Source: a virus. From it: 64,000 nt of DNA. Below, in pieces: positions 1 through 60,147 of this stretch. The stretch is taken from positions 1 to 64,000 of IMG/VR virus record IMGVR_UViG_2617271008_000003; one strand, written 5' to 3'. Below the pieces are notes generated by a model. The model made no database searches and was not told the origin of the DNA. It saw only the letters and a list, made by a program, of their open reading frames with translations. Each line of letters begins with the position of its first letter. The stretch's first letter is position 1. Both the position numbers and the translations under genes were made by a program.

Positions 1-1269
1 ATGAAATTCGACGCCAGAATCGCGAAGCAACTGAAGCCCGGCAGCCATCTGACATTCGCAAGCTTCCCCGGCCTGCGGCTGGAGGTTACCACTAGCCGGC
101 GTAGCTGGATATATCGCTACAAGTCACCTGTTGACAAGTGCATGCGTCAGCAAAAGCTCGGGCAGTGGCCAGAGATGTCGTACGCGTCGGCCATCTCGGC
201 ATGGGAGGAAATTCGAGGCCAGCGCGAGGCGGGCATAGACCCAGTTTTGGCCAAGAAACGTCCCAAGGATGCCGGGAAAGGCTACACGGTAATGCAGCTT
301 TGCGAAGATTTTTTGTCAGGATACATCGATGTCCATCGACAAGCAGATGGTGCGCGCTTGGTACGGCAGAGAATGCTGAAGAAGATCAAACCGATTGAGA
401 AGTTGCAAGCTGCGGAGATTACTCGCATGCAAGCTTTTGATCTACTTAATTCCGAGCGGCATGCTCCACGCAACGCTGCCGTTCTTCGATCCGAACTGGG
501 TGCAGCATGGGACTATGCTCTCGACGCAGCGAGAATTCCGCCAGAGACGCCTAATTGGTGGCGCCTCATCATGGCTCGTCAACTGCGCAGCAAAGGCCGA
601 ATTGTCGCTGGTACGCGCGTGACGGAGAAACGCATACTTACCGACAAGGAACTATCGATCCTCATCCCTTGGCTCAAAAACTTCTCGCCAACGATCGCCG
701 ACGTGCTGACCATGTACCTATGGACAGCATTGCGAGGCGGCGAAATCGTGGCGATTCAGGGCAAGTACATAGCCCAGGAAGACGATGGAACTTGGCTCAT
801 CATTCCGAAAGTGACAACCAAGAATAAGAATCGCTCATCGGCCCACGATCATCGAGTACCGCTAGTCGGCCGAGCACTTGAAATTATTGCGCGCAGGAAA
901 GAGGAATATGGTGATGGGTATCTGTTCCCAACTGACATCCATAAACATATCCCTCAAAAGAGCGTGCAAGCCATCGTTTGGAATCATCAGCCATATGCCC
1001 TAGATGAAGGGCAAACATTACGCCCGGTATTGCCTGTTTCTCATTGGTCGGCCCATGACCTTCGCAGGACGTCGCGAACTATTCTTGCATCTTTGGGGTG
1101 CCCGCATGAAGTCGGAGAGGTCATTCTTGGTCATGTAATACCGGGCGTGGCAGGGGTTTATAACAAATACAGATACGACAAGGAACGTAGGGAGTGGCTT
1201 ACGAAACTCTCTGACTATCTTGAAGGTCTTGCGCCAAAGATCGTCCAGGAGGAAGCAAATCGGAAATAG
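1..1269 (+). CDS. int: Phage integrase, tyrosine recombinase (P4-like)
   Basis: 422 aa ORF. C-terminal R..HDLRRT..LGH..Y catalytic signature typical of P4-family integrases. Sits at the prophage left end. Confidence 0.9.
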   Translation: MKFDARIAKQLKPGSHLTFASFPGLRLEVTTSRRSWIYRYKSPVDKCMRQQKLGQWPEMSYASAISAWEEIRGQREAGIDPVLAKKRPKDAGKGYTVMQLCEDFLSGYIDVHRQADGARLVRQRMLKKIKPIEKLQAAEITRMQAFDLLNSERHAPRNAAVLRSELGAAWDYALDAARIPPETPNWWRLIMARQLRSKGRIVAGTRVTEKRILTDKELSILIPWLKNFSPTIADVLTMYLWTALRGGEIVAIQGKYIAQEDDGTWLIIPKVTTKNKNRSSAHDHRVPLVGRALEIIARRKEEYGDGYLFPTDIHKHIPQKSVQAIVWNHQPYALDEGQTLRPVLPVSHWSAHDLRRTSRTILASLGCPHEVGEVILGHVIPGVAGVYNKYRYDKERREWLTKLSDYLEGLAPKIVQEEANRK

Positions 1270-1438
1270 GTCTTTCTTCGGCCCATGATTCGACTTCCCT
1301 GAATAGCCACCCTACTCTTTTTTGAGAAATACGGCGTGGCTTAGGGAATTCGTTTTTCCTGCACATTTCGTAAATTCTCGCTTCGGAAAGGGAAGTCGTC
1401 TCTGCTACTTGGTGGATATCCAAAAATATCGGTTTCAT
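1199..1438 (-). CDS. alpA: AlpA-family phage transcriptional regulator / excisionase-like HTH protein
   Basis: 79 aa. MKPIFLDIHQVAETTSLSEARIYEMCRKNEFPKP..VGW motif matches the AlpA / prophage CP4-57 regulator family. Convergent with int and overlaps its 3' end. Confidence 0.7.
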   Translation of the reverse strand: MKPIFLDIHQVAETTSLSEARIYEMCRKNEFPKPRRISQKRVGWLFREVESWAEERPISDLLPPGRSLAQDLQDSQRVS

Positions 1439-1516
1439 TTGAACGCCTTGTTAGGAGTTCCCCCGAAAACCAAAGCCCACGCGTTATCGCGATAATTCTA
1501 AGAAATGCTTCGTGCA

Positions 1517-1696
1517 TCAAGATGGATCGTGCTGATCGTGATATTTCTGTGCTCGGGCAAGGCGATCTGCTTCAATCACCTTGCGGGCAGCATCAACCTC
1601 TGATCCCCACTGCTTTTCAACTTCAATCGCTCCGGTTAGCTCGCAGTGCGGGCAATTTCCTAGCCATGGAATTCCATGGGGGCAGTTACCGTTCAT
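1517..1696 (-). CDS. Small zinc-ribbon protein (59 aa, CPHG..CPHC)
   Basis: Not in the ORF track because it is under 60 aa. Strong SD AGGGAGA 5 nt before the ATG. Two CxxC pairs. Confidence 0.35.
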   Translation of the reverse strand: MNGNCPHGIPWLGNCPHCELTGAIEVEKQWGSEVDAARKVIEADRLARAQKYHDQHDPS

Positions 1697-1704
1697 GATT
1701 CTCC

Positions 1705-1929
1705 CTATCCGGTAAGTTCATCGTATTCCTGCTGCTGCGCCTGTTTTGCAATCTCAAAACATGCAGCGCAACAGGTCTTCTTGACTTCAAAGCGGCGAGC
1801 CCATAAATAGCCGGTGAAGCATTCACGCTCTTTAACATCGTCTTTGAGTGTTTGGCATTCTGCGCAGAGATCAAGGATGCGGACTTCCATCTTTCGGCTT
1901 CGCCACGCATCCAGTTGCTTGTTGTTCAT
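1705..1929 (-). CDS. Hypothetical Cys-rich small protein
   Basis: 74 aa ORF with CAEC..CCAAC motifs. Same strand and operon as the DGR. Confidence 0.35.
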   Translation of the reverse strand: MNNKQLDAWRSRKMEVRILDLCAECQTLKDDVKERECFTGYLWARRFEVKKTCCAACFEIAKQAQQQEYDELTG

Positions 1930-2345
1930 GGCATCACTTCCCCATCCCTTTCGTTAGGAAGACTTGGAACAAAGGGCTTGACGTTTTCCCATGAACTGCC
2001 TTTTTGCCCCGGTTCATTACTGTTGGTGCATGCGTTCCGATGGTCAGTTGCATGAGGGCAGCGCTTGTTGCCACATTTGGCGCAAAGGATCATGCGGGCG
2101 TTCATGAAGTCCTGCGGCATGCAGCACTCACACGTACAGCCGATTTTTCCTGATCCCGCGTAGATCCCCGTCCGCATATTCGGGTCGCCGAGGTGTTCGC
2201 GCTCAGCCTCGACATATCCAGCATTGCGCCAAAGTCGCTCGATCATGACGACAAGCCCGTGTCGATCGGCCGGCGTCAGTTCGGTGTTGCAGTCGTTCAG
2301 GCGAGCGATGAGATCTCGCTCATGAGCTGTAGTATGACTCATCAT
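1926..2345 (-). CDS. Hypothetical Cys-rich protein
   Basis: 139 aa ORF with a CTCECC..CAKCGNKRCPH metal-binding-like cluster. Immediately downstream of the RT on the minus strand. Confidence 0.4.
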   Translation of the reverse strand: MMSHTTAHERDLIARLNDCNTELTPADRHGLVVMIERLWRNAGYVEAEREHLGDPNMRTGIYAGSGKIGCTCECCMPQDFMNARMILCAKCGNKRCPHATDHRNACTNSNEPGQKGSSWENVKPFVPSLPNERDGEVMP

Positions 2346-2352
2346 ATGTTTC

Positions 2353-3642
2353 TCAAATGTTTGTCTGACCTCGGTAAGTCTTAGTGAGATCGAAATTTAC
2401 AGATCGCCCGCGCGAAAGAGCGAGATTGGCGAGGCGTGCGCGATTTTGATGGCTGGCGGTGGCTTGGCGCAGCAATCCAAAATATGAATTACTCACAGCG
2501 AGAAAGTTGTCGAGTGATGTGGCCGCTGCTCGCCGGAGCGCTTCGTTACGCGTGCGCTTCCGTGTTTCTCGGCGCCAGGGTTTGATCACCTGGCCGACGA
2601 AATCGATGCCGCGGTCAATCGGTTGAAGAATGGTCTTGCGCGAGTTGATCTGCACTCCGAGGCGCGACGGCAGAAACGCAGTCACATTGGCGAGGATCTC
2701 GTTCAACCGCGCCGGCGACTCATGCAGGAACACGAAATCATCGACGTAGCGGATGTAGTGGCGCGCGCCGAGCACATGTTTGGCATGCTGGTCGAGCACG
2801 TCAAGATAGACGTTCGCGAAGAACTGGCTCGATAGGTTGCCGATCGGTAAGCCGAGGTGGTCAGCCTGCCGAAGTAGTCGTTTATGGGGCGGCACTAGCT
2901 TCAGCATCCATGGATCGCCATGGAATTCGAAGTCGCCCCGTGGATCGTGCATCAGCACGCGCGCGGTCAGATCGCGCCAGAACGGCTCGGAGATCTTCGT
3001 GAGCAACAGATCGAGCAAGATTGGCTTGTCGATACTGACGAAGAAGTTCGCGAGGTCGCACTTCAAGTAGAACGCCGGCCGCGACCAGTTCTGCGTGATC
3101 GAGCGAACCTTTGATTCGAGGCGGCGGGCGGCATAGAGGGTGCCGCGCCCCTTGATACATGCGCAGGAATCGGCGATGAATGCGCGCTCGAAGTGTGGCC
3201 CTATTCGGTTGTACAGCAGGTGGTGCACGATGCGGTCGCGAAACGCAGCAGCCCATACCTCGCGCGGTTTCGGTCGCGTAATTACGAAGCACTTCGATCG
3301 GCCGGGGGCATAGGTGCCGCTGACCAGCTCGTCGTACAGGCGGCGCAAGTTGCGTTCGAGTCGGATCTCGAACGACAGCGCCGCATTGGAATTTCTCTTT
3401 GTTCGCCGGCAGTCCAGATATGCCTCGACCAGCTCGGCGAACGAAATCGACCCTCGATCTGCGGACGGCTCGGGCTCGGAACTCGTTGTCCTGTCGGTCG
3501 TCGTCCTGGTAACCGTTGTTGAAGTTCTGATACCACGCCCAGCCGGATGTATCGTGCTATCTACGTCGCCTGCCCGATTATTCGGGCAGGAAACTGCGCT
3601 GGACCTATCCGCCAACTGGCGGCCGGTATCCTCATTGCGCAT
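2353..3642 (-). CDS. Diversity-generating retroelement reverse transcriptase
   Basis: RT motifs LPIGNLSSQFFANVYL (the DGR-specific ...SQ variant) and YVDDFVF (YxDD box). N-terminal region aligns to Brt-like DGR RTs (LVEAYLDCRRTKR..YAPGRSKCFVITRPKPREV..FRDRIVHH). True start uncertain: the maximal ORF runs to 3795 through the template repeat, and there is no ATG, GTG or TTG in frame near the conserved N-terminus. Confidence 0.85.
   Translation of the reverse strand: MRNEDTGRQLADRSSAVSCPNNRAGDVDSTIHPAGRGIRTSTTVTRTTTDRTTSSEPEPSADRGSISFAELVEAYLDCRRTKRNSNAALSFEIRLERNLRRLYDELVSGTYAPGRSKCFVITRPKPREVWAAAFRDRIVHHLLYNRIGPHFERAFIADSCACIKGRGTLYAARRLESKVRSITQNWSRPAFYLKCDLANFFVSIDKPILLDLLLTKISEPFWRDLTARVLMHDPRGDFEFHGDPWMLKLVPPHKRLLRQADHLGLPIGNLSSQFFANVYLDVLDQHAKHVLGARHYIRYVDDFVFLHESPARLNEILANVTAFLPSRLGVQINSRKTILQPIDRGIDFVGQVIKPWRRETRKRTRNEALRRAAATSLDNFLAVSNSYFGLLRQATASHQNRARLANLALSRGRSVNFDLTKTYRGQTNI
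3459..3547 (-). repeat. DGR template repeat (TR)
   Basis: ~89 bp copy of the VR sequences. On the plus strand it carries T at every position where the two VR copies vary, which is A on the coding minus strand. It codes AWYQNFNNGYQDDDRQDN, rich in AAC codons. Confidence 0.85.
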
Positions 3643-3688
3643 GGCGGTGGCCTCGTGAGCCAGCGGCACGACCAGATTGATATTTCGC

Positions 3689-4066
3689 TCAGTCATGGCG
3701 GCCTTGACCTTCATGAAGCGGGCGACGTTCTGTGGACTTCTTCCATCCATTGGCCTGTTTCCCGATACTCGTCGTCTGCTCGATCGCGCCAGCATAGGCC
3801 GCGCGCGCGATAAGACGCTTGTCCATGCCGAGGCGAAGCAACAGTTCTATCACTTGGAGGCGCTCAAGCAATTCGGCGAGATGCGGCGACTTGTCGGCCG
3901 CGACGTTCGCGCGGAACACCAGCACCATGATATCGATGCATTCGATCGTGATCTTCTCGCCGATGGTGCGCTTGAAGTCGCGAGGCATGTTCTTGACCAC
4001 GTCGGTGACAGTATCGAGCAGCGCATATGCCGCTCGATATATCGGCAGTTGGGTATGGATGGCCAC
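3689..4066 (-). CDS. avd: DGR accessory variability determinant (Avd-like four-helix-bundle protein)
   Basis: 125 aa basic helical protein lying between the target genes and the TR. Resembles the four-helix-bundle (TIGR02436/bAvd) family. Confidence 0.65.
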   Translation of the reverse strand: MAIHTQLPIYRAAYALLDTVTDVVKNMPRDFKRTIGEKITIECIDIMVLVFRANVAADKSPHLAELLERLQVIELLLRLGMDKRLIARAAYAGAIEQTTSIGKQANGWKKSTERRPLHEGQGRHD

Positions 4067-4080
4067 GGTGGATTAAATAA

Positions 4081-4545
4081 TCAAATTACTGAAGGGAGAA
4101 ACCTGCGGACGGCTCGGGCTCGGAACTCGTCGCCCTGCCGGCCGCCGTCCTGGTAACCGTAGTCGAAGTTCTGACACCACGCCCAGCCGGAATTTGACTC
4201 ATATACTTCGGCCGACCAGTACCATGCCGATTCGAACTCGTCGCGTAGGTTCGTGAACAGGAGCGATTGCTCGCGACGTGTAGGCAACTCACCACCTCGC
4301 TCGGCCGCCCATTTCTTGGCCGATTCCCAGTTGACCTCGTCGGCACCGCCCGGCAGCAGGATGACGTAGTGCGCGACCAATCCATCGTTGTTGAGGATTG
4401 CGCCGGCAACGCGTTCGCCAGCAGCGAGTGGAATTGTGACTGCGGGAATGCGCAGTTCGGTGGCAGTGGGCTGCTTCTTGAATTGTTCGATGAGCGCGCT
4501 GATACGAGCGTGTTCGGCCTCGATGGAGGCAAGCGTGATGGTCAT
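4081..4545 (-). CDS. DGR target protein B, DUF1566 / C-type-lectin (FGE-like) fold, VR at C-terminus
   Basis: 154 aa. C-terminal GGELPTRREQ..YWSAEV..SGWAWCQNFDYGYQDGGRQGDEFRARAVRRF matches the DUF1566 end (WRLPT..YWSST..AW..VRCVR). The variable repeat covers the last ~30 codons. Confidence 0.8.
   Translation of the reverse strand: MTITLASIEAEHARISALIEQFKKQPTATELRIPAVTIPLAAGERVAGAILNNDGLVAHYVILLPGGADEVNWESAKKWAAERGGELPTRREQSLLFTNLRDEFESAWYWSAEVYESNSGWAWCQNFDYGYQDGGRQGDEFRARAVRRFLPSVI
4103..4192 (-). repeat. DGR variable repeat VR-B
   Basis: Differs from the TR at 8 positions, all at TR adenines on the coding strand (A to G, T or C). Confidence 0.85.
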
Positions 4546-4575
4546 TGCGATGCTCCGTTGTGAATGGATGAAGGG

Positions 4576-4938
4576 TTAAATCGACAATCTGCGGACGGCT
4601 CGGGCTCGGAACTCGTTGTCCTGTCGGTCGTCGTCCTGGTAACCGCCGTCGAAGTACTGACACCACGCCCAGCCGGAATAGCCAGGATCGGTATCCGGTG
4701 TGTTCGACCAGTACGCTTCAGCCTGAAACTGGTCGCGGTTCTGCTCGTAGGCGATCACGAGCTCGGCGCGGGTCGGAAGGTCGCCGCCGATGCTCTTTGC
4801 CCAGTCGAGCTGTGCCTGCCACGAAGCATCGTCGTTGTCGCCGGGCAGGAGAATCGTGTGCGTCACGTCGCCAGCGGCGTTGACGAAGCCGCAGAGGTAG
4901 ATCTCACCTTCGGCGAGCGGGGGAATCTGGATTTGCAT
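4576..4938 (-). CDS. DGR target protein A, DUF1566 / C-type-lectin fold, VR at C-terminus
   Basis: 120 aa. GGDLPTRAELVIAY..YWSNTPDTDPGYSGWAWCQYFDGGYQDDDRQDNEFRARAVRRLSI. SD AGGAGA before the ATG. Confidence 0.8.
   Translation of the reverse strand: MQIQIPPLAEGEIYLCGFVNAAGDVTHTILLPGDNDDASWQAQLDWAKSIGGDLPTRAELVIAYEQNRDQFQAEAYWSNTPDTDPGYSGWAWCQYFDGGYQDDDRQDNEFRARAVRRLSI
4589..4678 (-). repeat. DGR variable repeat VR-A
   Basis: Differs from the TR at 5 positions, all at TR adenines. The 3' 45 nt on the coding strand (IMH-like, GC-rich) are identical to the TR. Confidence 0.85.
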
Positions 4939-5023
4939 GTTTCATCTCCTAGTAAAATGCTGCGTCAATGAAGTCACTGGTATGAATTCAATTTATGGAA
5001 CGTTTCAGCTTAGATTTGCTTAC

Positions 5024-5233
5024 TCACTTGCCGTCCTCCTCGGCCCGCGCGAAGTCCGCTATCTTTCGGGCAAGTTCTTCGTCGTCCATGCCGAGCGCGC
5101 GCGCGATTGCCAAGCGCGCTTGACTTGCCTGTGAGCGCGATATCGTGGGCAACCGCATGCCATGTGCTTCGCTGTAGTCCGTGACGTGCGCCCGGATGTA
5201 GTCGCAGGCTTCGGTGTATGGGTATCTGCTCAC
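5024..5233 (-). CDS. Hypothetical small phage protein
   Basis: GTG start overlaps the upstream stop (GTGA) inside the repeated GGAGGACGGCAAGTGA coupling motif. Ends ..EEDGK. Confidence 0.45.
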   Translation of the reverse strand: MSRYPYTEACDYIRAHVTDYSEAHGMRLPTISRSQASQARLAIARALGMDDEELARKIADFARAEEDGK

Positions 5234-5475
5234 TTGCCGTCCTCCTTCCTCTTGCGCTTGTCCAGCCACTTTTGAGCCTCGTCGCGCATGGTCGAGTGAG
5301 CTTCATACGAGATCCGGAACATGAGGTGCATGTCGCGGGTTTGTTCCTCGGGCTGGATGCATTCCTCGCGGAGCTTGCCGTTTTCGTCGCGCACGATGAC
5401 CCAGAGAGGGCGGTTTGACCAGCCAGGGCCACTGGCGAATTCGGCGTATGCTGTCACTACTTGTTCTTTTCTCAC
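5230..5475 (-). CDS. Hypothetical small phage protein
   Basis: Same GGAGGACGGCAAGTGA coupling motif at both start and end. Ends ..KEDGK. Confidence 0.45.
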   Translation of the reverse strand: MRKEQVVTAYAEFASGPGWSNRPLWVIVRDENGKLREECIQPEEQTRDMHLMFRISYEAHSTMRDEAQKWLDKRKRKEDGK

Positions 5476-5876
5476 TTGCCGTCCTCCGTGGTGATGCGCG
5501 CCAGCGGTTCCCACAAGCTCATGAGGTGAGCCAGTCGGGGCATCAAGTATTCGATGACTGCCGGCTCGTCAGCGCGGCAAACGTCGATGATCGAGCAGGA
5601 ATGGAAGCCCTTTCGCTGGACCATGAAGAACATCTTCAGCTTGCCATTTCGGTAATACGGGTCACCAGTGAAAGTGGGGCGATTGTCATCATCCATTTCG
5701 TCCCAGTCCCAGCGAAACAGCATGTTGTAGTCCATGTCTGCATCGCCCATTTCGGCAAAGAAGTCAGCCCATGACTTGAATTCCCAGATTGTCTTGTGCT
5801 GTTCCTGGCTATGCGTGTAGCCGCCCTCGGTGCAGTAGTACGGGTGCTTGATTTCCCACAGGTGCTTGTCGTTCAA
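5472..5876 (-). CDS. Hypothetical phage protein
   Basis: TTG start after SD GGAGGTGGAGC, overlapping the upstream stop (TTGA). The long 5472-6419 ORF upstream of this start is a shadow of the 5873-6217 gene. Confidence 0.5.
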   Translation of the reverse strand: MNDKHLWEIKHPYYCTEGGYTHSQEQHKTIWEFKSWADFFAEMGDADMDYNMLFRWDWDEMDDDNRPTFTGDPYYRNGKLKMFFMVQRKGFHSCSIIDVCRADEPAVIEYLMPRLAHLMSLWEPLARITTEDGK

Positions 5877-6217
5877 GCTCCACCTCCAGCTTCGGTGATG
5901 CGCGCCCCGATCTCGGCGGCAGCGCGGGTGATGGCGCGGCGAGTGGCGGCGTTCGCGTCCCCGTGCGGCTCCTCGATCGTCGCCCAGCCGTTCATCTCGT
6001 AGAACTGAGCGCTCGAAGAATGGCTGCTCGCATGCACCATCAGACGCAGATGCACCGCCAGCCGCAGCGCGTCGCCGTCGTCGTTGAGGGGGTTCCACTC
6101 GCGCCATACCCCATCGGCGCGCTCGATGTGCCAATGGTTCGGCGTGCCGCGCTGATAATCCGTCCATTCCGCGCCGGCAGCCTTCGCCGCTAGTCGCAAT
6201 AGTTCTTGATCGTTCAA
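5873..6217 (-). CDS. Conserved phage protein (three paralogs in this window)
   Basis: 114 aa MNDQELLRLAAKAAGAEWTDYQRGTPNHWHIERADGVWREWNPLNDDGDALRLAV... The first 55 aa are identical to 30916-31278, and it is related to 11766-12140. TTG start with SD GGAGGTGGATC. Confidence 0.6.
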   Translation of the reverse strand: MNDQELLRLAAKAAGAEWTDYQRGTPNHWHIERADGVWREWNPLNDDGDALRLAVHLRLMVHASSHSSSAQFYEMNGWATIEEPHGDANAATRRAITRAAAEIGARITEAGGGA

Positions 6218-6498: not shown

Positions 6499-7067
6499 GA
6501 TTTCTCTCCCTTGCGTGCGGCGTCGATAGCCTCGTCGCACGGTAATGGTTTCCAATGCTTCGGTTCGTAGATCAGAGTGCTGACGCCGCTTCCATTCGGA
6601 TGGTTATAGACAGCGTCCTCCACATAAAAGTAGTGATTTACGCGCTGGATTCTCACTGCGGCTTTGGGCCAATGCCAGTGGTTGGTGCCTGGCACTTTGA
6701 GATATCCTCCTTTGACCAAATATTTCCCACTCGCTGGCGCCGTCTCGATCGGTTGCCATTCGCTTTCCGAGATAGCCGGCGCAGCCTTGACGAGCGCAGC
6801 GTAGAGTTCATCCGGCGTACCGTATATGCAGTTCTCGTTTGTCAGCACTGCGCGCATGGCATCGTTCAGCGGCGGCATGGTGATAGTCGGCGCAGGCGAG
6901 GCGGCGAGCAGTTCTCGCGCGCGTTCCTTCGCCAGTTGAAACACGGATTCCAAGGCGTCGGCATTGAATGCCGTGTCGTTGCGCAGTTGCATGATTAGGA
7001 ACGCAGGGTCGCAGCGCTCGATGAATTCGAGGTGCTCTCGGCGTTCGTCGCTCAGCTTGTCACTCAT
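6495..7067 (-). CDS. DUF551-domain phage protein
   Basis: WQPIETAP motif. SD AAGGGAGA before the ATG (MSDKLSDERREHLE). Paralog of 30104-30919. Confidence 0.6.
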   Translation of the reverse strand: MSDKLSDERREHLEFIERCDPAFLIMQLRNDTAFNADALESVFQLAKERARELLAASPAPTITMPPLNDAMRAVLTNENCIYGTPDELYAALVKAAPAISESEWQPIETAPASGKYLVKGGYLKVPGTNHWHWPKAAVRIQRVNHYFYVEDAVYNHPNGSGVSTLIYEPKHWKPLPCDEAIDAARKGEKS

Positions 7068-7090
7068 CGGGTGTCTCCCTTGGTCGGTGC

Positions 7091-7294
7091 TCACGTCAAC
7101 CTCAGATATTCGTTCGTGACGGAATCAAGCTCGTCCTGAGATTCACAGCGATCCGAGCCGCACTCGGCGATGGCATGATTCGCTGCGTCCGTAGCAGCGT
7201 CTCCGGGCCATCCGCGAAGCCGAGCCTCAAGATAGACTTGCCCCCACATGTCAGGTGCGCCGAGTGCCAGCGAGTCAACGATTGGCTTCTTCAC
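7091..7294 (-). CDS. Hypothetical small protein
   Basis: GTG start after SD GGAGG, overlapping the upstream stop (GTGA). Confidence 0.4.
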   Translation of the reverse strand: MKKPIVDSLALGAPDMWGQVYLEARLRGWPGDAATDAANHAIAECGSDRCESQDELDSVTNEYLRLT

Positions 7295-9483
7295 GCTTCG
7301 CCTCCCTTCCCACCCTGCGCGCCCGACACCAGATCGCGCAGGTTCTGCTTTTCCTGCTCGGCGGTTTCGAGCGCATCGCCTTGGTCGAAGCGACCGCCCA
7401 CGAGTGACCATGCAGACGCCAACACCTGCGCCTGCGCCATGATCTCCTCGACGCGCTTGGGCGGGAGCACCGCCTCTCCCGCATCAGCAGGGACGGCGCC
7501 TCGATAGAGCGGCACGACGTGATCGGGCCTCATGTCCGCGATATCCTCGCGATCGAGGTAGACGCTCGCCGGTTTCAGGCTGACGCAATCGAGCGTCATG
7601 TATGCATCCGGCTCGCGCGCCTCGGCCGGTGCGGCGGCCTGCTCGTCTTCGACGATCTTCAACGCTTCGAGCACGTCGAGGAAGAAAACCAGAGGGCCTG
7701 CCTCGTGTTCCTTGCCGTCCCAGTTGTAGCGCTTGAAGGCTGGCATCGAGGCCGGTGCGGCGGCCTGCGCGCGATAAAGCTCGACTTCCATGCGGAGCAC
7801 TTCTGCAAGGCGCTTGACCAGTTCGATCTTGTTGAGCGGGTCATCGGGATGTACGGGATCTTCGCCGCGCAGGGTCACGCAGACATCTGCAAGCGTTTCG
7901 CTCAGTCGGCGGATCACGTAGGCATCCTCCGACTCTTCGGCAGCGTTCGCTTGAGGTGCGGCGGCCTGCGATTCCCGCGCGGCGACCTCGACGGCGCGAG
8001 CGAACTTGGACAACGCAGGATTGATCGGACAGCCCATGATTCGGGCACTGAGGCGCGCGAGGAGGCTGAAATCAAGCTTCGCCGCCCGCTCGTCGGCCGT
8101 GGCCGGGTTCTTTCGCGTGCCATCGTCGATGTCGCACGAGTCCTCCGGACAGCAGACGCCATCGCGGTTCCCTGCGAGGCACACATCGCCGCCGTTCTGG
8201 CAATGCTGCTTCGGCGCTTTCCAGGGCTCGGCCGTGGCCGGCGATACTGCTGCGCGCTCGTTGGCCGCGTCCGCTTCGGAATGAACAACCTGGCTCAAGC
8301 GTTGTTTCAACTCATCAACCATGCGCTGATAGCGGAGCACAGAAGATTCGAGATGCTGGATGATCTTGTCCGCCGGCGGCGATACTGCTGCGTGCATCAC
8401 GATGTCTCTAAGTTCAACAGCCCGTTCAGCGTCTATGAACTTCGCGATTTCGGCTGCGTCGATAGCGGTTCGAAGCGCATTCGCGTCACAAGCATTCAAC
8501 ATTCGGGTGGCCGGCGATACTGCTGCGCGCGCCTCGCGTAATGCTTCCCGGATGGCGTTCTTCACGTTGACGGGATATGCCATGCCGCCGGGACAGTGGG
8601 CATTGGCGATCCAATCGATGCGATCTTCGTCCGTGGCCTCCCCATCAGCTGCGACAGCCTGAGCGGCTATTTCCGGCACCGTCCAATCGCGAGTCGGGCA
8701 GTCTAAGGCTTGCTGGATAGTGCTGGTTGCATCTTGCCCTTCGCCCAATGGCACGGGGCCGAAATCGTGGATCGATGCCACTCTGACCGGCGCGTCGACA
8801 GCCTGAGCGGCCGATTGGACCTCCCCAATGCCGGCGATCTTCATGCTGTCGAAAATCTCGATCGTGCGCGTGTGGGCTTCGGACCAGCAGTCGACAGCCG
8901 ACATTGGCTCGTGAGACTCCGCTGCGCCGTGCGAAGCATCTTCCAATGCGCGCTTGATCGAGCCACGCACGAACCCGTACAGGTCGCGCCGGTCGATCGT
9001 GATCAGGTTCGCCGCGTTATCCGTCTGCGGCTCCGCGACCGGGGCGGCGGGAGCGGCGTCGAGCATGGCGCTCCAAATCTTCTTGAAGCCGGACCAGCCA
9101 TGTTCGTCGTAGGCGAGGTGGCCCGAATCGGCCATCTCGCGGGTGGCCTCGATCGGCACCAGCTTCCACCCCTTCGGTGCGGGCACTCCTGCTCGCGGGG
9201 AGGTGAGAAGTGCGCGGAGATCGGCGACGAGAAGCGGCGTGAAATTGATGGAATGAATTTTCTCTTGGTCGGCGCCTCGAAGAATGGAATATGCATCCAT
9301 GAAAGCTGCCACACGCTTCCGTGCGGCTTCGCGCTGCTCGTCTCGAATCGGGCTGTGTTGCAAAGCAAAAAGTTCGCGGAGGCGCACGAGCGTTTCGCGG
9401 GGGACGCGTGCGATGCCGTTTTCGCTGCTGTCGATCAGGTGGGCGATATCGCGATCCAGATCGGCGGTGGTGTTGTTCGTCAT
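7291..9483 (-). CDS. Large multi-module phage protein with repeated AAAPA / RAAVSPAT linkers
   Basis: 730 aa starting MTNNTTA, like its paralog at 27825. Contains a 50 aa block identical to 27825-29702, and a Cys cluster CCPEDSCD. Confidence 0.55.
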   Translation of the reverse strand: MTNNTTADLDRDIAHLIDSSENGIARVPRETLVRLRELFALQHSPIRDEQREAARKRVAAFMDAYSILRGADQEKIHSINFTPLLVADLRALLTSPRAGVPAPKGWKLVPIEATREMADSGHLAYDEHGWSGFKKIWSAMLDAAPAAPVAEPQTDNAANLITIDRRDLYGFVRGSIKRALEDASHGAAESHEPMSAVDCWSEAHTRTIEIFDSMKIAGIGEVQSAAQAVDAPVRVASIHDFGPVPLGEGQDATSTIQQALDCPTRDWTVPEIAAQAVAADGEATDEDRIDWIANAHCPGGMAYPVNVKNAIREALREARAAVSPATRMLNACDANALRTAIDAAEIAKFIDAERAVELRDIVMHAAVSPPADKIIQHLESSVLRYQRMVDELKQRLSQVVHSEADAANERAAVSPATAEPWKAPKQHCQNGGDVCLAGNRDGVCCPEDSCDIDDGTRKNPATADERAAKLDFSLLARLSARIMGCPINPALSKFARAVEVAARESQAAAPQANAAEESEDAYVIRRLSETLADVCVTLRGEDPVHPDDPLNKIELVKRLAEVLRMEVELYRAQAAAPASMPAFKRYNWDGKEHEAGPLVFFLDVLEALKIVEDEQAAAPAEAREPDAYMTLDCVSLKPASVYLDREDIADMRPDHVVPLYRGAVPADAGEAVLPPKRVEEIMAQAQVLASAWSLVGGRFDQGDALETAEQEKQNLRDLVSGAQGGKGGEA

Positions 9484-34149: not shown

Positions 34150-34936
34150 AAGGCGATTGAGCCTTGTATCTATTTTTCGGATAATCTCAAAGTATCCCAA
34201 AGGCCGATAAAGCGCGGATTTGGAATATTGCAGTATTCCGGCAGTAGGTTGGTGCCTAGCTCGGAGGTATCGCGCAAAGCGATTAGCCGAGACGCGGATC
34301 AGACATGAGTGCCGCGATCATGGAAAACCGTGTCAGCACGCGATTCCTGTTCTCCAATGAGACACCTCCAGGAAGGCGCGTAGAACATAGCGCGAGACCG
34401 ATGCAAATGGCGACGAGCCGAAAGGCATGCCCTGTCGACCGAAGGTGTTGGCGCGCAACCGTTCTTTGCCGACTGGCTCACGAGACGAGCCTTCTCCCAA
34501 AACCCGGAAACTGCTGGCGAGGCCAGTCGAACGCATCTATTGCGATGAACGGGTCGCCGGGTCTTGGGAGAGCGCAGTATGGCGTCCGGTGGGTGGTGCT
34601 CACCCTCATGCCGGAGCCGCGTATGGAGCCGCAATCCTTAACTGCGGTGACGGGCGGAGAAAATTAGCGTGCCGCCGGTTGGTCTCCGTTATCGGACCGT
34701 TTTCACGCATGCTTTCGTCTAGAGGCCTAGGACGGTGGGTCATGGCTAACGCCTACTCGCAAACTCTGGTTCGAATCCAGAAGGCAGCCGTGAGAGCGAA
34801 TCGCAGTTCGACGGGAGGAATCCCGCACGTTGCGATAGTGCAGGCTGATGCGCGCAAGATAGCCAGAGCCGGTTCGGTGCGGCCGAGGCGAAACCCCGAA
34901 AGCTGGAGATCAGCACCGGCCGCTCTCTCCATAGTT

Positions 34937-35012
34937 GCCGGTTTAGCTCATCAGGTAGAGCGACGGATTTGTAATCCGTAGGCGGTGGGTTCGAGCCCTA
35001 CAGCCGGCACCA
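34937..35012 (+). tRNA. tRNA-Thr (anticodon TGT)
   Basis: Folds as a canonical cloverleaf: 7-bp acceptor, D stem GCTC/GAGC, anticodon stem ACGGA/TCCGT with loop TTTGTAA, T loop TTCGAGC, CCA encoded. Confidence 0.85.
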
Positions 35013-35141
35013 GAATTTCCGGTCTGAACCCGGCGCGATCGGTGGAAAGCCGATCAAGGGGTAGCCCACTGTGCGGGCATCGATGGAAGTGGCGATGTTA
35101 AATGAGCCGCCCCCGGACGCGGCTACCACAACACCATATAC

Positions 35142-35234
35142 GGAAGAGTTAGCCGAATCGGCATAGCGGCAGCGGTCTTGAAAACCGAAGGCCCAGTAAT
35201 GGGTGTGTGAGTTCGAGTCTCACCTCTTCCGCCA
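35142..35234 (+). tRNA. tRNA-Ser (anticodon TGA), type II with long variable arm
   Basis: Perfect 7-bp acceptor GGAAGAG/CTCTTCC, T arm GTGAG-TTCGAGT-CTCAC, anticodon loop CTTGAAA, variable stem GCCCA/TGGGT, CCA encoded. The D arm is slightly irregular. Confidence 0.6.
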
Positions 35235-35239
35235 TCTAT

Positions 35240-35329
35240 GGAAGGTTGCCAGAGAGGCAATGGGTCGGCTTGCTAAGCCGTAGCCGATGCGTAAGCGTCG
35301 CGTGCGTTCGATCCGCACGCCTTCCGCCA
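35240..35329 (+). tRNA. tRNA-Ser (anticodon GCT), type II
   Basis: Acceptor GGAAGGT/GCCTTCC, D stem CCA/TGG, anticodon loop TTGCTAA, T arm GTGCG-TTCGATC-CGCAC, CCA encoded. Confidence 0.6.
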
Positions 35330-35382
35330 CTAAATCGGCCGCGCGATCAGGCGGCCGATGGGCCATAACTGGCAAGAACAAT

Positions 35383-35461
35383 TCCGCGAAATCCGAGCTT
35401 GGTGCACGGACCTGACTGTTAATCAGAGATTAGCTGAGTTCGATCCTCAGACGCGGAGCCA
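35383..35461 (+). tRNA. tRNA-Asn-like (anticodon GTT), possibly degenerate
   Basis: T arm CTGAG-TTCGATC-CTCAG, anticodon loop CTGTTAA, 6 of 7 acceptor pairs, CCA encoded. Overlaps and argues against ORF 35358-35639. Confidence 0.45.
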
Positions 35462-35684
35462 TTTACTAATCCGGATGGCGGCAGGAGCATGGGCGGTGCC
35501 CTTCCTGTTTGCCTGCCGGACCTTCACGCATGCGCTCTTATGCTTCTGCCCCGGCGGAGGCTTCAGTCGGCCGACAGAGAACGCAGTCGTGAAGGCAAAA
35601 CAGAATCGGCCGCGCACTGCGATGGCAGCCTACGGGTAAGTGGGCCGAGAGTTGAACCTTCTTCATTTCGCACAGGGAGCGAGC

Positions 35685-35870
35685 ATGCATTTGACATCTG
35701 ACGACAAAAGCAACGTTATCGGTCTAGCAGCCGCAGCAGCGGCCGAATGGGCCAAAGAAAACGTCAAACGTGGATCTATCGTTGATGGTCCGTCCGACAA
35801 AAGCATTGGGGAAAAGATTGGCGAGATTGTGGCCAACGCCGCCCTTAGCGCCGCGGAGCTGCTGAAGTAA
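35685..35870 (+). CDS. Hypothetical small protein
   Basis: 61 aa from the internal ATG. Alanine-rich. Confidence 0.3.
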   Translation: MHLTSDDKSNVIGLAAAAAAEWAKENVKRGSIVDGPSDKSIGEKIGEIVANAALSAAELLK

Positions 35871-35877
35871 TTCGAAT

Positions 35878-35953
35878 TGCGGGTGTAAGCCAACGGTAGA
35901 CAGCGAGGCTCATAACCTCGAAGCAGCCAGTTCGACTCTGGCCCCCGCAACCA
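35878..35953 (+). tRNA. tRNA-like sequence (anticodon CAT, Met/Ile-like) with defective D arm
   Basis: Good T arm GCCAG-TTCGACT-CTGGC, anticodon stem CGAGG/CCTCG with loop CTCATAA, acceptor 6 of 7 pairs, CCA encoded. The D stem does not pair. Confidence 0.3.
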
Positions 35954-51641: not shown

Positions 51642-51734
51642 TCCCCCTGCGCTGCGGCTAGGACACGCGATCCGAACGCCAGCACCTTACTGGCTGCCGC
51701 AGCCCTTCCTAAGGGCTGACAAAGGTATCAGCAC

Positions 51735-60056: not shown

Positions 60057-60147
60057 TCGGCTCCCGATAGATCGACGGATCGAAAGCGCGTTTCCCTGGA
60101 CGCGCCCTCGGGAGCCCCTTATCCAGGAATTCTCAGGGGAATCCCCT

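Follow-up and report, generated by a model that had tools for sequence, protein, structure and literature searches.

The Burkholderia gladioli prophage analyzed here, from the strain with assembly GCA_000756855.1, carries a cassette on the minus strand of positions 2353-4938 of the window, by which we mean the whole 64,000-nt stretch of DNA studied. The list of open reading frames (ORFs) and the repeat alignment place its parts in the order target A, target B, avd, template repeat (TR) and reverse transcriptase (RT). An initial annotation, made from the sequence alone, had described these parts as a complete diversity-generating retroelement (DGR) with two targets, and our examination of ORFs, repeats and Pfam matches recovered all of them with the order, strand and positions that it had proposed. 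The features of the locus are as follows.

4576-4938, minus strand: target A, a 120-aa ORF for a small C-type-lectin/Lcl_C (DUF1566)-like protein
4587-4677, minus strand: VR-A, the variable repeat (VR) at the 3' end of target A
4081-4545, minus strand: target B, a 154-aa ORF with a predicted N-terminal helix followed by a C-type-lectin/Lcl_C-like domain
4101-4191, minus strand: VR-B, the variable repeat at the 3' end of target B
3689-4066, minus strand: avd, 125 aa, accessory variability determinant, a four-helix-bundle protein
3545-3727, minus strand: RT-15 structured RNA (Rfam RF03018), a covariance-model match
3457-3547, minus strand: TR, the reference copy of the three-copy family
3459-3484 (TR), 4103-4128 (VR-B) and 4589-4614 (VR-A), minus strand: invariant GC-rich 3' element, GAGTTCCGAGCCCGAGCCGTCCGCAG
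2353-3642, minus strand: DGR RT, 429 aa from the ATG at 3642, as annotated in the source record
1199-1438, minus strand: alpA (Pfam Phage_AlpA)
1-1269, plus strand: tyrosine integrase (Pfam Arm-DNA-bind_3, Phage_integrase)

The integrase and alpA genes detected by the Pfam search adjoin the cassette, which lies, as judged from Pfam matches and ORF context, at the distal end of the leftward early operon. The ORFs that flank the cassette are without a homologue in any of 85 related loci, which marks the cassette as a discrete mobile unit. A cysteine-rich 139-aa ORF that follows the RT gene and the ORFs that precede target A were considered as accessory genes of the element and ruled out, as neither is conserved (0/85 loci in each case); they also gave no Pfam, PHROG or PADLOC match.

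The TR and the two VRs form the sole three-copy repeat family of this kind within positions 1500-6000. The TR, for which a length of 89 bp had been given, aligns over 89 nt with VR-B and over 91 nt with VR-A, and the VRs end 20 nt (VR-B) and 11 nt (VR-A) from the stop codons of their respective genes. VR-A is 95% identical to the TR and differs from it by five mismatches (four A>G and one A>T), and VR-B differs by nine (eight A>G and one A>T), all of them on TR adenines. With 23 adenines in the 91 nt of the TR, the hypergeometric probability of adenine-only mismatches is 7e-4 for VR-A and 1e-6 for VR-B, each VR being taken separately. The proposed restriction of substitutions to template adenines thus holds for 14 of 14 differences in the alignment of the three copies, and it extends to relatives, where 134 of 137 TR/VR mismatches in five related phages and 1902 of 1998 in 78 genomic loci are found at adenines. 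Among Burkholderia homologues of target B, the hypervariable columns coincide with the VR (W-x-Q-x-F-x-x-G-x-Q-x-x-x-x-Q-x-x-E), which is comparative evidence for transfer from the TR. The TR of the examined strain has also lost half of its AAC codons, a trait that the initial annotation had missed.

The TR, VR-A and VR-B share an identical GC-rich 26-mer and diverge only beyond GCAG(A/G)T; the 64 kb contain exactly three copies of this 26-mer, whereas none is expected from shuffles. The core GTCCGCAGA is almost invariant across 80 loci, including at synonymous sites of the VR frame. This 3' element is likely the region of cDNA initiation and homing (IMH-like). Comparison of the TR with both VRs revealed no IMH/IMH* difference, the feature that confers directionality on DGRs, within the repeat, and no stable hairpin follows the VRs, where the DNA folds more weakly than shuffled controls (z = +1.4 and +1.5); hairpins after the VR are missing in most DGRs (Wu et al. 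2018).

The open frame of the RT spans positions 2353-3795 and its conserved domain starts at about 3441. Candidate starts of translation are the AUG at 3642, located within RT-15, and a non-canonical AUU at 3443 that follows the TR and has GAGGG in front of it. The protein matches Pfam RVT_1 (4e-14) and its best PDB match is bRT (8ub7; 8e-35, 124 bits), whereas matches to group II and retron RTs reach 4e-9 or worse and 40 bits or less, in agreement with its description as a DGR-type enzyme. The IGNLSSQ and YVDD motifs reported for it are both present, and in the alignment with bRT PIGNLSSQ corresponds to PIGSLTSQ, YVDD to YMDD and LKCD to LKSD. RTs of the DGR clade carry the motif [I/L/V]GxxxSQ where group II and retron RTs have QGxxxSP. 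The NCBIfam matches of the RT are generic, spread over many RT families and all far below their cut-offs, and PADLOC likewise returned only generic RT matches; a reading of the enzyme as a defense or retron RT was dropped on these grounds. The identification of Avd is supported by PF22296 (bAvd; 2.7e-13, 50.8 bits against a 40-bit cut-off) and the protein scores 52 bits with NCBIfam DivGenRetAVD, under the 80-bit cut-off of that model. An avd homologue occurs in 82 of the 85 related loci.

Targets A and B, tandem genes that each bear a VR at the 3' end as initially described, encode proteins that are 47% identical to each other, and target B is 100% identical to B. gladioli DM48_311. The AF2 model of target B (pLDDT 87.7) shows a predicted C-type-lectin/Lcl_C fold, with the Lcl C-terminal domain (8q4e; E 1e-4, TM 0.51-0.59) as top Foldseek match in the PDB, followed by C-type-lectin-like domains. 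A lectin fold is predicted for target A through its identity to the modeled target B. Searching a viral structure library for a target function yielded DUF1566 and lectin matches only. The DUF1566/C-type-lectin assignment made for both proteins is therefore upheld at the level of the target B model, but not by Pfam, as PF07603 (Lcl_C, formerly DUF1566) scores 27.1 bits for target A and 25.0 bits for target B, short of the gathering threshold of 34.9. Because these scores fall below the cut-off and the modeled fold matches 8q4e, we regard the targets as probable distant members of Lcl_C by fold that are sub-threshold by sequence. The name DUF1566 is still used by sources, and a precomputed PF07603 match is recorded for a protein identical to target B. 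A hydropathy check revealed no lipobox, signal peptide or hydrophobic segment in either target (maximum Kyte-Doolittle(19) value of 1.26 for target A); the reported lack of a signal peptide agrees with this check, which is its sole basis.

Could the repeats and the RT be unconnected? Under such a reading, gene duplication and ordinary gene conversion would have produced two paralogues and a pseudogene fragment, next to an RT belonging to an unrelated retron, group II or defense system. It would account for the paralogy of the two targets and for the generic matches of the RT to many families in PADLOC and NCBIfam. However, differences lie on adenines of the non-coding copy only, in all 14 cases here and in 1902 of 1998 in relatives; moreover, the RT scores 124 bits with bRT against 40 bits or less with retron and group II RTs, its NCBIfam matches are all far under the cut-offs, an Avd is present and Rfam detects no retron or intron RNA. 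Adenine specificity effectively refutes this explanation, to which we attach next to no weight, and the presence of a real and complete DGR in the B. gladioli prophage is confirmed. A different question is whether the DGR still operates. It could be weakened in the examined strain, because its TR is poor in AAC (4 trinucleotides, the lowest number in 80 loci, where relatives have a median of 8), its TR/VR differences are few (5 and 9, against 7-18 in relatives) and its changes are biased toward A>G (12 of 14, compared with 909 of 1902 among relatives). These same traits, with half of the AAC codons of the TR gone when compared with a sister strain of B. gladioli and with 79 relatives, speak for a decaying or silenced DGR in which the architecture is intact, diversification has stopped and the TR/VR differences are fossils of past activity. 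Against this, the four ORFs are all intact, RT-15 scores at full strength, the RT catalytic motifs are present and there are no non-adenine mismatches, whereas drift after inactivation would add such changes. In addition, both VRs carry every non-adenine change peculiar to the TR of this strain (GGT, TAC, the first-position G of four codons and TTC CGA GCC CGA); TR-to-VR transfer is therefore recent in the lineage and homing took place later than the erosion of the TR. We consider decay unlikely and favor an intact DGR, which is very probably a module of four genes and a non-coding RNA, placed at that end of the leftward early operon which is nearest to the integrase gene.

A third alternative concerns the use to which this DGR is put. 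If the targets were receptor-binding parts of the virion, such as tail-fiber adaptors, the element would serve host-range switching as in Bordetella phage BPP-1. Tail proteins are the majority of viral DGR targets described so far (Roux 2021), and host-range alteration is one of the possibilities named by the authors of the Burkholderia cenocepacia phage Magia genome (PMC7883833). We nevertheless find this assignment improbable, as the target genes are located in the early/lysogeny region by the integrase gene, ~33 kb away from the terminase gene, and their 120-154-aa products contain no other domain. Moreover, sensitive blastn searches with the TR and tblastn searches with both targets over the 64 kb returned only the three known copies, with no further target and no additional VR or lectin paralogue among the structural genes. 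Five phage genomes of differing types likewise contain this cassette within the early region, each time with unrelated flanking genes. One of these five phages is classified in Detrevirus, which we take to be a siphovirus genus. One is a myophage according to its own paper. Devoid of an export signal and co-transcribed with early genes, the targets are most likely cytoplasmic binders of variable ligands that act during induction or lysogeny, and their features suggest a function other than host-range switching. They constitute an unusual class, being small proteins devoid of an export signal, encoded among early/lysogeny-region genes and belonging to a module shared between unrelated temperate phages.

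The gap between avd and the TR contains a structured RNA that had escaped the initial annotation. RT-15 is matched over its full length (model positions 1-192); at 172 bits the match exceeds the gathering score of 82, and it covers the last 39 nt of avd and the entire gap to end 3 nt into the TR. An RT-15 model that we built matches 79 of 80 related loci, always in this position and strand orientation, and its helices exhibit compensatory changes at 40 of 53 pairs across the 79 loci. The drawn structure is paired at 93%, and sliding the partner lowers this value to about 37%. Also overlooked initially, the RT reading frame traverses the 3' end of the TR, leaving no untranslated spacer after it; this frame is kept across the TR 3' end in 78 of 81 loci. 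Weinberg et al. (2017) linked only RT-10 to a DGR, left RT-15 and other RT motifs unassigned and suggested that many of the RT motifs might be retrons, whereas RT-15 is here the 5' flank of a DGR TR in 80 of 81 loci. Our literature search found no paper linking RT-15 to DGRs.

BPP-1 (mtd-avd-TR-Sp-brt) harbors the experimentally defined DGR prototype. The two elements share Avd, a TR between avd and the RT gene, adenine mutagenesis and a C-type-lectin VR at the target C-terminus, and their RTs are homologous (124 bits), with the K29-equivalent, the fingers and the PIGxLxSQ and YxDD motifs aligned, except for an insertion of about 30 aa between two aligned blocks of the B. gladioli enzyme. BPP-1 has a single target, a tail-fiber protein, whereas two targets are present here. 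In BPP-1, a 140-nt untranslated spacer (Sp, Rfam RT-10) follows the TR and supplies the priming adenosine; in contrast, the B. gladioli element lacks both RT-10 and an untranslated spacer, its RT frame continues through the TR 3' end and a 183-nt structured RNA precedes the TR. The BPP-1-type spacer is a trait of the DGR prototype and not of the family as catalogued.

By analogy with BPP-1, the transcript that comprises RT-15 and the TR would be bound by an RT-Avd complex and the TR copied into cDNA from a start near the invariant GTCCGCAG, with random misincorporation opposite adenines. The cDNA would then replace the 3'-terminal ~90 coding nucleotides in each of the two target genes, re-randomizing about 10 surface residues of the C-type-lectin binding face per protein, while the TR would remain the master copy.

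Around the TR, Rfam searches detected neither RT-10 nor any other RT motif, even at E<=10, and the priming step therefore cannot be mapped by homology. RNAalifold analysis of the RT 5' coding region in 80 loci yielded only a 4-bp GCAG:CUGC pairing, which was set aside as evidence of structure given that it shows no compensatory change. Nor did covariation point to a priming duplex, as variants at the TR 3' end (C189A in 5 loci, positions 194/195 in 6 loci) are unaccompanied by complementary changes in RT-15 or the RT 5' end, and the invariant AAUCUGG of RT-15 shows no covariation. We tentatively put forward, as a possibility to which we give somewhat less than even weight, that this lineage combines a rearranged DGR RNA, in which RT-15 located 5' of the TR replaces the roles of Sp, with cytoplasmic hypervariable targets. 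The ~185-nt RT-15 would then mediate RT-Avd binding, the cDNA stop and perhaps priming, as Sp does in BPP-1. With the TR inside the RT ORF, a single RNA would serve as RT messenger and as mutagenesis template, and RT translation would be in competition with the folding of RT-15. If this holds, hypervariable lectin binders made in the cytoplasm from an early operon would form a target class beyond the tail-fiber and cell-surface paradigms. Current mechanistic models of DGRs stem from one phage, in which the priming RNA is located after the TR, and surveys of other DGRs looked no further than 40 nt upstream of the TR. The clade with RT-15 thereby provides a natural test of how general the BPP-1-derived priming model is, and its presence in cultured phages of Burkholderia and Pseudomonas makes it accessible to experiment. 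RT-15, an orphan Rfam family, gains a function-linked context as the conserved 5' flank of the TR in a spacer-less DGR clade.

As a kind of DGR, the cassette is not novel but an ordinary member of a widespread and already catalogued lineage, and the rarity implied initially was overstated in view of the precedents in Wu et al. (2018) and DiGReF 2012 and of the ~80% identical cassette of phage Magia. The two-target layout is found in 66 of 78 analyzable related loci of beta- and gammaproteobacteria. Wu et al. (2018) reported two targets in 13% of DGRs and DUF1566-class VRs in 14%, about half of these targets being short and DUF1566-only. In their category 'd'/CLec2 (DUF1566, DUF823, Fib_succ_major; e.g. 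Legionella LdtA), the VR overlaps a DUF1566/Lcl_C-type lectin domain, as here, and the best structural match of target B is itself the C-terminal domain of Legionella Lcl. LdtA is a surface lipoprotein, unlike the B. gladioli targets with their lack of lipobox, signal peptide and hydrophobic segment. DiGReF 2012 lists two-VR DGRs in B. glumae BGR1, B. thailandensis MSMB43, Ralstonia pickettii 12J, Pseudomonas fluorescens WH6 and Sideroxydans, and its 'group 3' has a TR that overlaps the annotated RT ORF. Our genome scan for relatives returned the same genera, and we infer from host taxonomy and architecture alone (two VRs, TR/RT-ORF overlap) that these entries belong to the same lineage. The cassette consequently changes little as a DGR, since the lineage already figures in catalogues and in the genome of a published phage; the position of RT-15 directly before the template is its one under-described feature.

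The published genome is that of Magia (MT701587; Microbiol Resour Announc 2021, PMC7883833), which was reported with a "potential DGR". Its cassette is ~80% identical in nucleotides along the whole length (window positions 2368-4943), has the same order of target (120 aa), target (154 aa), avd, RT-15, TR and RT, shows adenine-only substitutions and is likewise located between early recombination genes and the integrase gene, although its flanking genes are unrelated. The Magia TR is AAC-rich and contains 27 adenines, against 23 here. The cassette is also present in phages vB_E192a and vB_PL1. In the Magia paper, genes 47 and 57 are given as targets, and gene 46, the homologue of target B, is left as hypothetical; blastn and tblastn searches detected no counterpart of a remote target of the gene 57 type in the 64 kb. 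In many relatives, the annotated RT start codon lies inside RT-15.

The diversity-generating retroelement (DGR) cassette comprises four tightly spaced minus-strand ORFs and one repeat family, with the following genes in and beside it:

4576-4938, minus strand: target A, an ORF of 120 aa
4081-4545, minus strand: target B, an ORF of 154 aa
3689-4066, minus strand: avd, an ORF of 125 aa
2353-3795, minus strand: open frame containing the reverse transcriptase (RT)
1926-2345, minus strand: Cys-rich ORF of 139 aa, beginning 8 nt past the RT stop codon
1199-1438, minus strand: alpA, separated from the cassette by three small unassignable ORFs
1-1269, plus strand: tyrosine integrase, beyond the same three ORFs

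The short intergenic gaps (30 nt between targets A and B, 14 nt between target B and avd) make co-transcription of the two targets and avd likely. Target B is 100% identical to Burkholderia gladioli DM48_311, and the window sequence matches contig KN150850.1 of assembly GCA_000756855.1. On the target-A side, the same strand encodes a PHROG-5086 protein, a Gam-like protein, an SSB and a Sak4-like annealing protein; the large terminase subunit is located at 37.8 kb of the window. With int/alpA on one side and these early genes on the other, the cassette is the final module of the leftward early operon of the prophage, which upholds the placement proposed in the initial annotation. The Cys-rich ORF has no match in Pfam, PHROG, NCBIfam or PADLOC and, since no homologue adjoins any of 85 related cassettes, we consider it strain-specific cargo outside the DGR.

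A repeat search returned a single three-copy direct repeat of 91 nt (3457-3547, 4101-4191 and 4587-4677). Two copies lie near the 3' ends of the targets, stopping 20 nt short of the target B stop codon and 11 nt short of that of target A, and the third sits past avd, ahead of the conserved RT region. An invariant 26-mer, GAGTTCCGAGCCCGAGCCGTCCGCAG, has exactly three occurrences in the 64 kb and none in 100 shuffles, and a sensitive search with the RT-adjacent copy and both target proteins found no further repeat copies or target paralogues in the window. On the coding strand, the target A and target B copies differ from the RT-adjacent copy at 5 and 9 positions, all 14 of which are adenines of the latter (23 A in 91 nt), with adenine-only probabilities of 7e-4 and 1e-6 when the two are tested separately. 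The alignment thus bears out the adenine-restricted substitution claimed earlier and identifies the RT-proximal copy as the template repeat (TR) and the others as variable repeats (VR-A and VR-B). Substitutions are A>G (12) and A>T (2) and fall at positions 1 and 2 of TAT, AAC and GAC codons; the template read in the VR frame encodes SGWAWYQNFNNGYQDDDRQDNEFRARAVRR. The 26-mer shared by TR and VRs contains no IMH/IMH* difference, and no hairpin follows VR-A or VR-B.

The RT matches RVT_1, and among solved structures bRT of the Bordetella phage BPP-1 DGR is by far its closest relative (8ub7; 8e-35, 124 bits); the next-best structural-database matches, group II and retron RTs, reach 4e-9 or worse, which marks the RT as DGR-type. 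In the alignment, PIGNLSSQFFANVY corresponds to PIGSLTSQLFANVY of bRT, YVDD to YMDD and LKCDLANFF to LKSDFSKFF, and the N-terminal FAELVEAYLDCRRTKRN aligns with WENLLDAYRKTSHGKRR; the aligned motifs take in residues that are catalytic or template-contacting according to the bRT cryo-EM paper. NCBIfam and PADLOC returned only generic, sub-threshold RT matches. The avd product passes the Pfam bAvd threshold (50.8 bits versus 40), in agreement with its assignment as Avd-like. The two targets share 47% identity, and assignment to the DUF1566/C-type-lectin fold is borne out by a structure model of target B but not by profile scores: Pfam Lcl_C (formerly DUF1566) gives 25 and 27 bits, under the threshold of 34.9, whereas an AlphaFold2 model of target B (mean pLDDT 87.7, 117 homologues) best matches the Legionella Lcl C-terminal domain in the PDB (8q4e, E 1e-4), ahead of intimin, NK-receptor and snake-venom C-type-lectin domains. 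A viral structure library returned DUF1566 and poxvirus and herpesvirus lectins for the target model. The initial observation of a complete DGR is confirmed and its interpretation supported.

Upstream of the TR, Rfam RT-15 (RF03018) matches at full length at 3545-3727 on the minus strand (172 bits versus a gathering score of 82), beginning in the final 39 nt of avd and ending 3 nt inside the TR. The RT-1 to RT-19 motifs were reported from the neighbourhood of RT genes by Weinberg et al. (2017), who tied only RT-10, the spacer between TR and brt in BPP-1, to a DGR and proposed many of the others as possible retrons. Our literature search found no paper mentioning RT-15 alongside DGR terms, and the record of Pseudomonas phage Cruim01 annotates RT-15 as misc_RNA without comment. 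A scan of species-representative genomes yielded 291 RT relatives in Burkholderia, Paraburkholderia, Cupriavidus, Ralstonia, Pseudomonas and other beta- and gammaproteobacteria, the best 80 of which form our locus set (78 with enough upstream sequence). The covariance model, which derives from six phage copies, matches 79 of the 80 loci, always on the RT strand, and the matches end 89-134 nt ahead of the conserved RT N-terminus, with the TR occupying the gap. Compensatory changes affect 40 of 53 base pairs and 93% of cells are paired, against 28-42% with the partner slid by 1-3 columns, in an alignment fitted to the model and hence biased towards the structure. The helix closing the multi-branch junction is 100% paired with four co-varying pairs, and its 3' strand ends just a few nucleotides upstream of the TR. 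In this DGR clade, the orphan 'RT-associated' motif RT-15 thus forms the conserved flank on the 5' side of the TR. Its position and conservation suggest that it may take the place of the BPP-1 spacer.

In BPP-1, the TR is followed by a 140-nt untranslated spacer, which is the source of the priming adenosine and pairs with the TR 3' end, and with the avd 3' end to halt cDNA synthesis. In contrast, the conserved RT N-terminus in the window begins at most 30 nt from the TR, with no in-frame ATG, GTG or TTG in between. In the RT frame of relatives, the TR-terminal GTCCGCAGA invariably encodes (x)-Ser-Ala-Asp, and at least eight different spacings (44-68 nt) separate GCAG from the conserved Asp-Cys-Arg codons, with phase preserved in 78 of 81 loci. 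An open RT frame covers no less than the 3' two-thirds of the TR in 79 of 79 loci; in 63 it spans the entire TR, and in 57 it extends into RT-15 by at least 100 nt. Because the frame stays open and in phase despite varied linker lengths, our conclusion is that RT translation in this clade probably includes the 3' part of the TR, which would leave no untranslated spacer after it. The RT start codon varies by subgroup, being an AUG within RT-15 in Burkholderia-type members, within the TR in many Pseudomonas members and just past it in Haboob. Candidates in the window are AUG 3642, the start of the 429-aa RT annotated in the source record, and AUU 3443, with GAGGG upstream. As ATG 3642 lies within an RT-15 helix, RT-15 folding and RT translation may compete.

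RT-10 has no Rfam match around the window TR. RNAalifold recovered only an invariant 4-bp GCAG:CUGC pairing of the TR end with the RT Asp-Cys codons, and in the rare cases where the TR 3' end varies, neither RT-15 nor the RT 5' region shows a complementary substitution. AGA codons are rare in GC-rich genomes, and GTCCGCAGA is near-invariant even at sites synonymous in the VR frame, its AGA arginine codon included; this constraint points to a role at the nucleotide level, probably in initiation and homing.

Comparison of target B with its Burkholderia homologues shows a conserved scaffold and many alternative residues in the VR-encoded columns, W-x-Q-x-F-x-x-G-x-Q-x-x-x-x-Q-x-x-E. In a sister strain of B. 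gladioli, an 89% identical cassette has an AAC-rich TR (AAC CAG AAC AAC AAC CAC CAG AAC AAC), where the window TR reads TAC CAG GAC GAC GAC CGA CAG GAC AAC. Every derived non-adenine base of the window TR is common to both window VRs. The synonymous markers specific to the window, GGT and TTC CGA GCC CGA, likewise occur in both. Because these bases are shared and all remaining differences fall at adenines, information has passed from the window TR to both VRs after the TR changed. This evidence for activity is comparative and falls short of proof of present activity.

The same comparison indicates erosion of the template. The window TR holds 4 AAC trinucleotides versus a median of 8 in 79 relatives (range 5-10, setting aside three zero values due to pattern-match failures). 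Relative to the TR of the sister strain (3998-4088 of its locus), the window TR (3457-3547) has exchanged six ancestral adenines for G or T within 24 nt, and 6 of 12 differences fall at A where ~3.6 are expected, in this single comparison. These six changes match the element's own mutation spectrum and could have arisen by drift, by conversion of the TR from a VR or by a mutagenised cDNA homing into the template. The eroded TR lowers the diversity obtainable from the window copy and is the chief argument for a weakened element.

The cassette (2368-4943) is ~80% identical to those of Burkholderia phages Magia, vB_E192a and vB_PL1 and ~65% identical to those of Pseudomonas phages Cruim01, Haboob and phPA-G, all of which share the order target-target-avd-TR-RT in the early region. 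In these phages, 134 of 137 TR/VR mismatches are at adenines, as are 1902 of 1998 in the 78 loci (A>G 909, A>T 661, A>C 332). Two VRs are present in 66 of the 78 loci, three in 6 and one in 6, most of the latter being interrupted by contig ends. DiGReF (2012) lists two-VR DGRs in B. glumae, B. thailandensis, R. pickettii and P. fluorescens and includes a class where the TR overlaps the RT ORF; in the survey by Wu et al. (2018), 13% of DGRs have two targets and 14% have VRs of the DUF1566 class, roughly half of the corresponding targets being short and single-domain. The tandem small DUF1566-fold targets, initially singled out as unusual, are therefore the norm for the clade, and the element belongs to a known, catalogued DGR lineage. 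The present analysis adds the RT-15-TR link, evidence placing the TR within the frame of the RT, and the template erosion seen in this strain.

The Magia genome announcement (PMC7883833) named its element 'a potential DGR' and cites genes 47 and 57 as targets, not gene 46. Gene 46 (6714-7178 of the Magia locus), annotated 'hypothetical protein', is the target B homologue and nevertheless has a VR with 11 mismatches, adenine-only. Burkholderia-type cassettes of ~79% identity also occur in Hujiaoplasma phage zrk29-1 (OP650936.1), whose host is listed as a Tenericutes bacterium, and Shewanella phage vB_Sb_QDWS (OK094664.1); each record is exactly 47,902 bp, and the two may be one phage under two host names, or a contaminant.

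Standard DGR targets are tail fibres in phages and exported surface proteins in cellular genomes (Roux 2021). Against a virion role for the targets described here, they are small (120-154 aa), are encoded among early genes and belong to a cassette that moves as a module among phages with unrelated flanking genes. In addition, neither has an export signal by a heuristic that is not a signal-peptide predictor (no 19-residue Kyte-Doolittle window above 1.4, no lipobox). On these grounds, the targets probably act intracellularly. Sequence and structure searches gave no indication of a ligand or pathway, and an anti-defence or exclusion role is speculation.

Elsewhere in the window, 'Mu Gam-like / host nuclease inhibitor' PHROGs match only the last ~40 residues of a 730-aa early-operon ORF (7291-9483, minus strand), the Ala- and acidic-rich remainder being unassigned. 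Two int-alpA RNA motifs (51651-51715 and 60060-60128, plus strand; 45.7 and 45.5 bits, gathering score 35.8) lie far from int/alpA at 1-1438 and suggest that the right part of the window holds a second mobile element or additional modules of the integrase/alpA type. A Proteo-phage-1 RNA (34254-34338, plus strand) is followed by a cluster of four tRNAs (Thr-TGT, Ser-TGA, Ser-GCT and Met-CAT) in low-GC, phage-like DNA (region 34254-35953). GC content across the whole window is 50-62%, well under the ~68% of the B. gladioli chromosome, so the entire 64 kb looks horizontally acquired.
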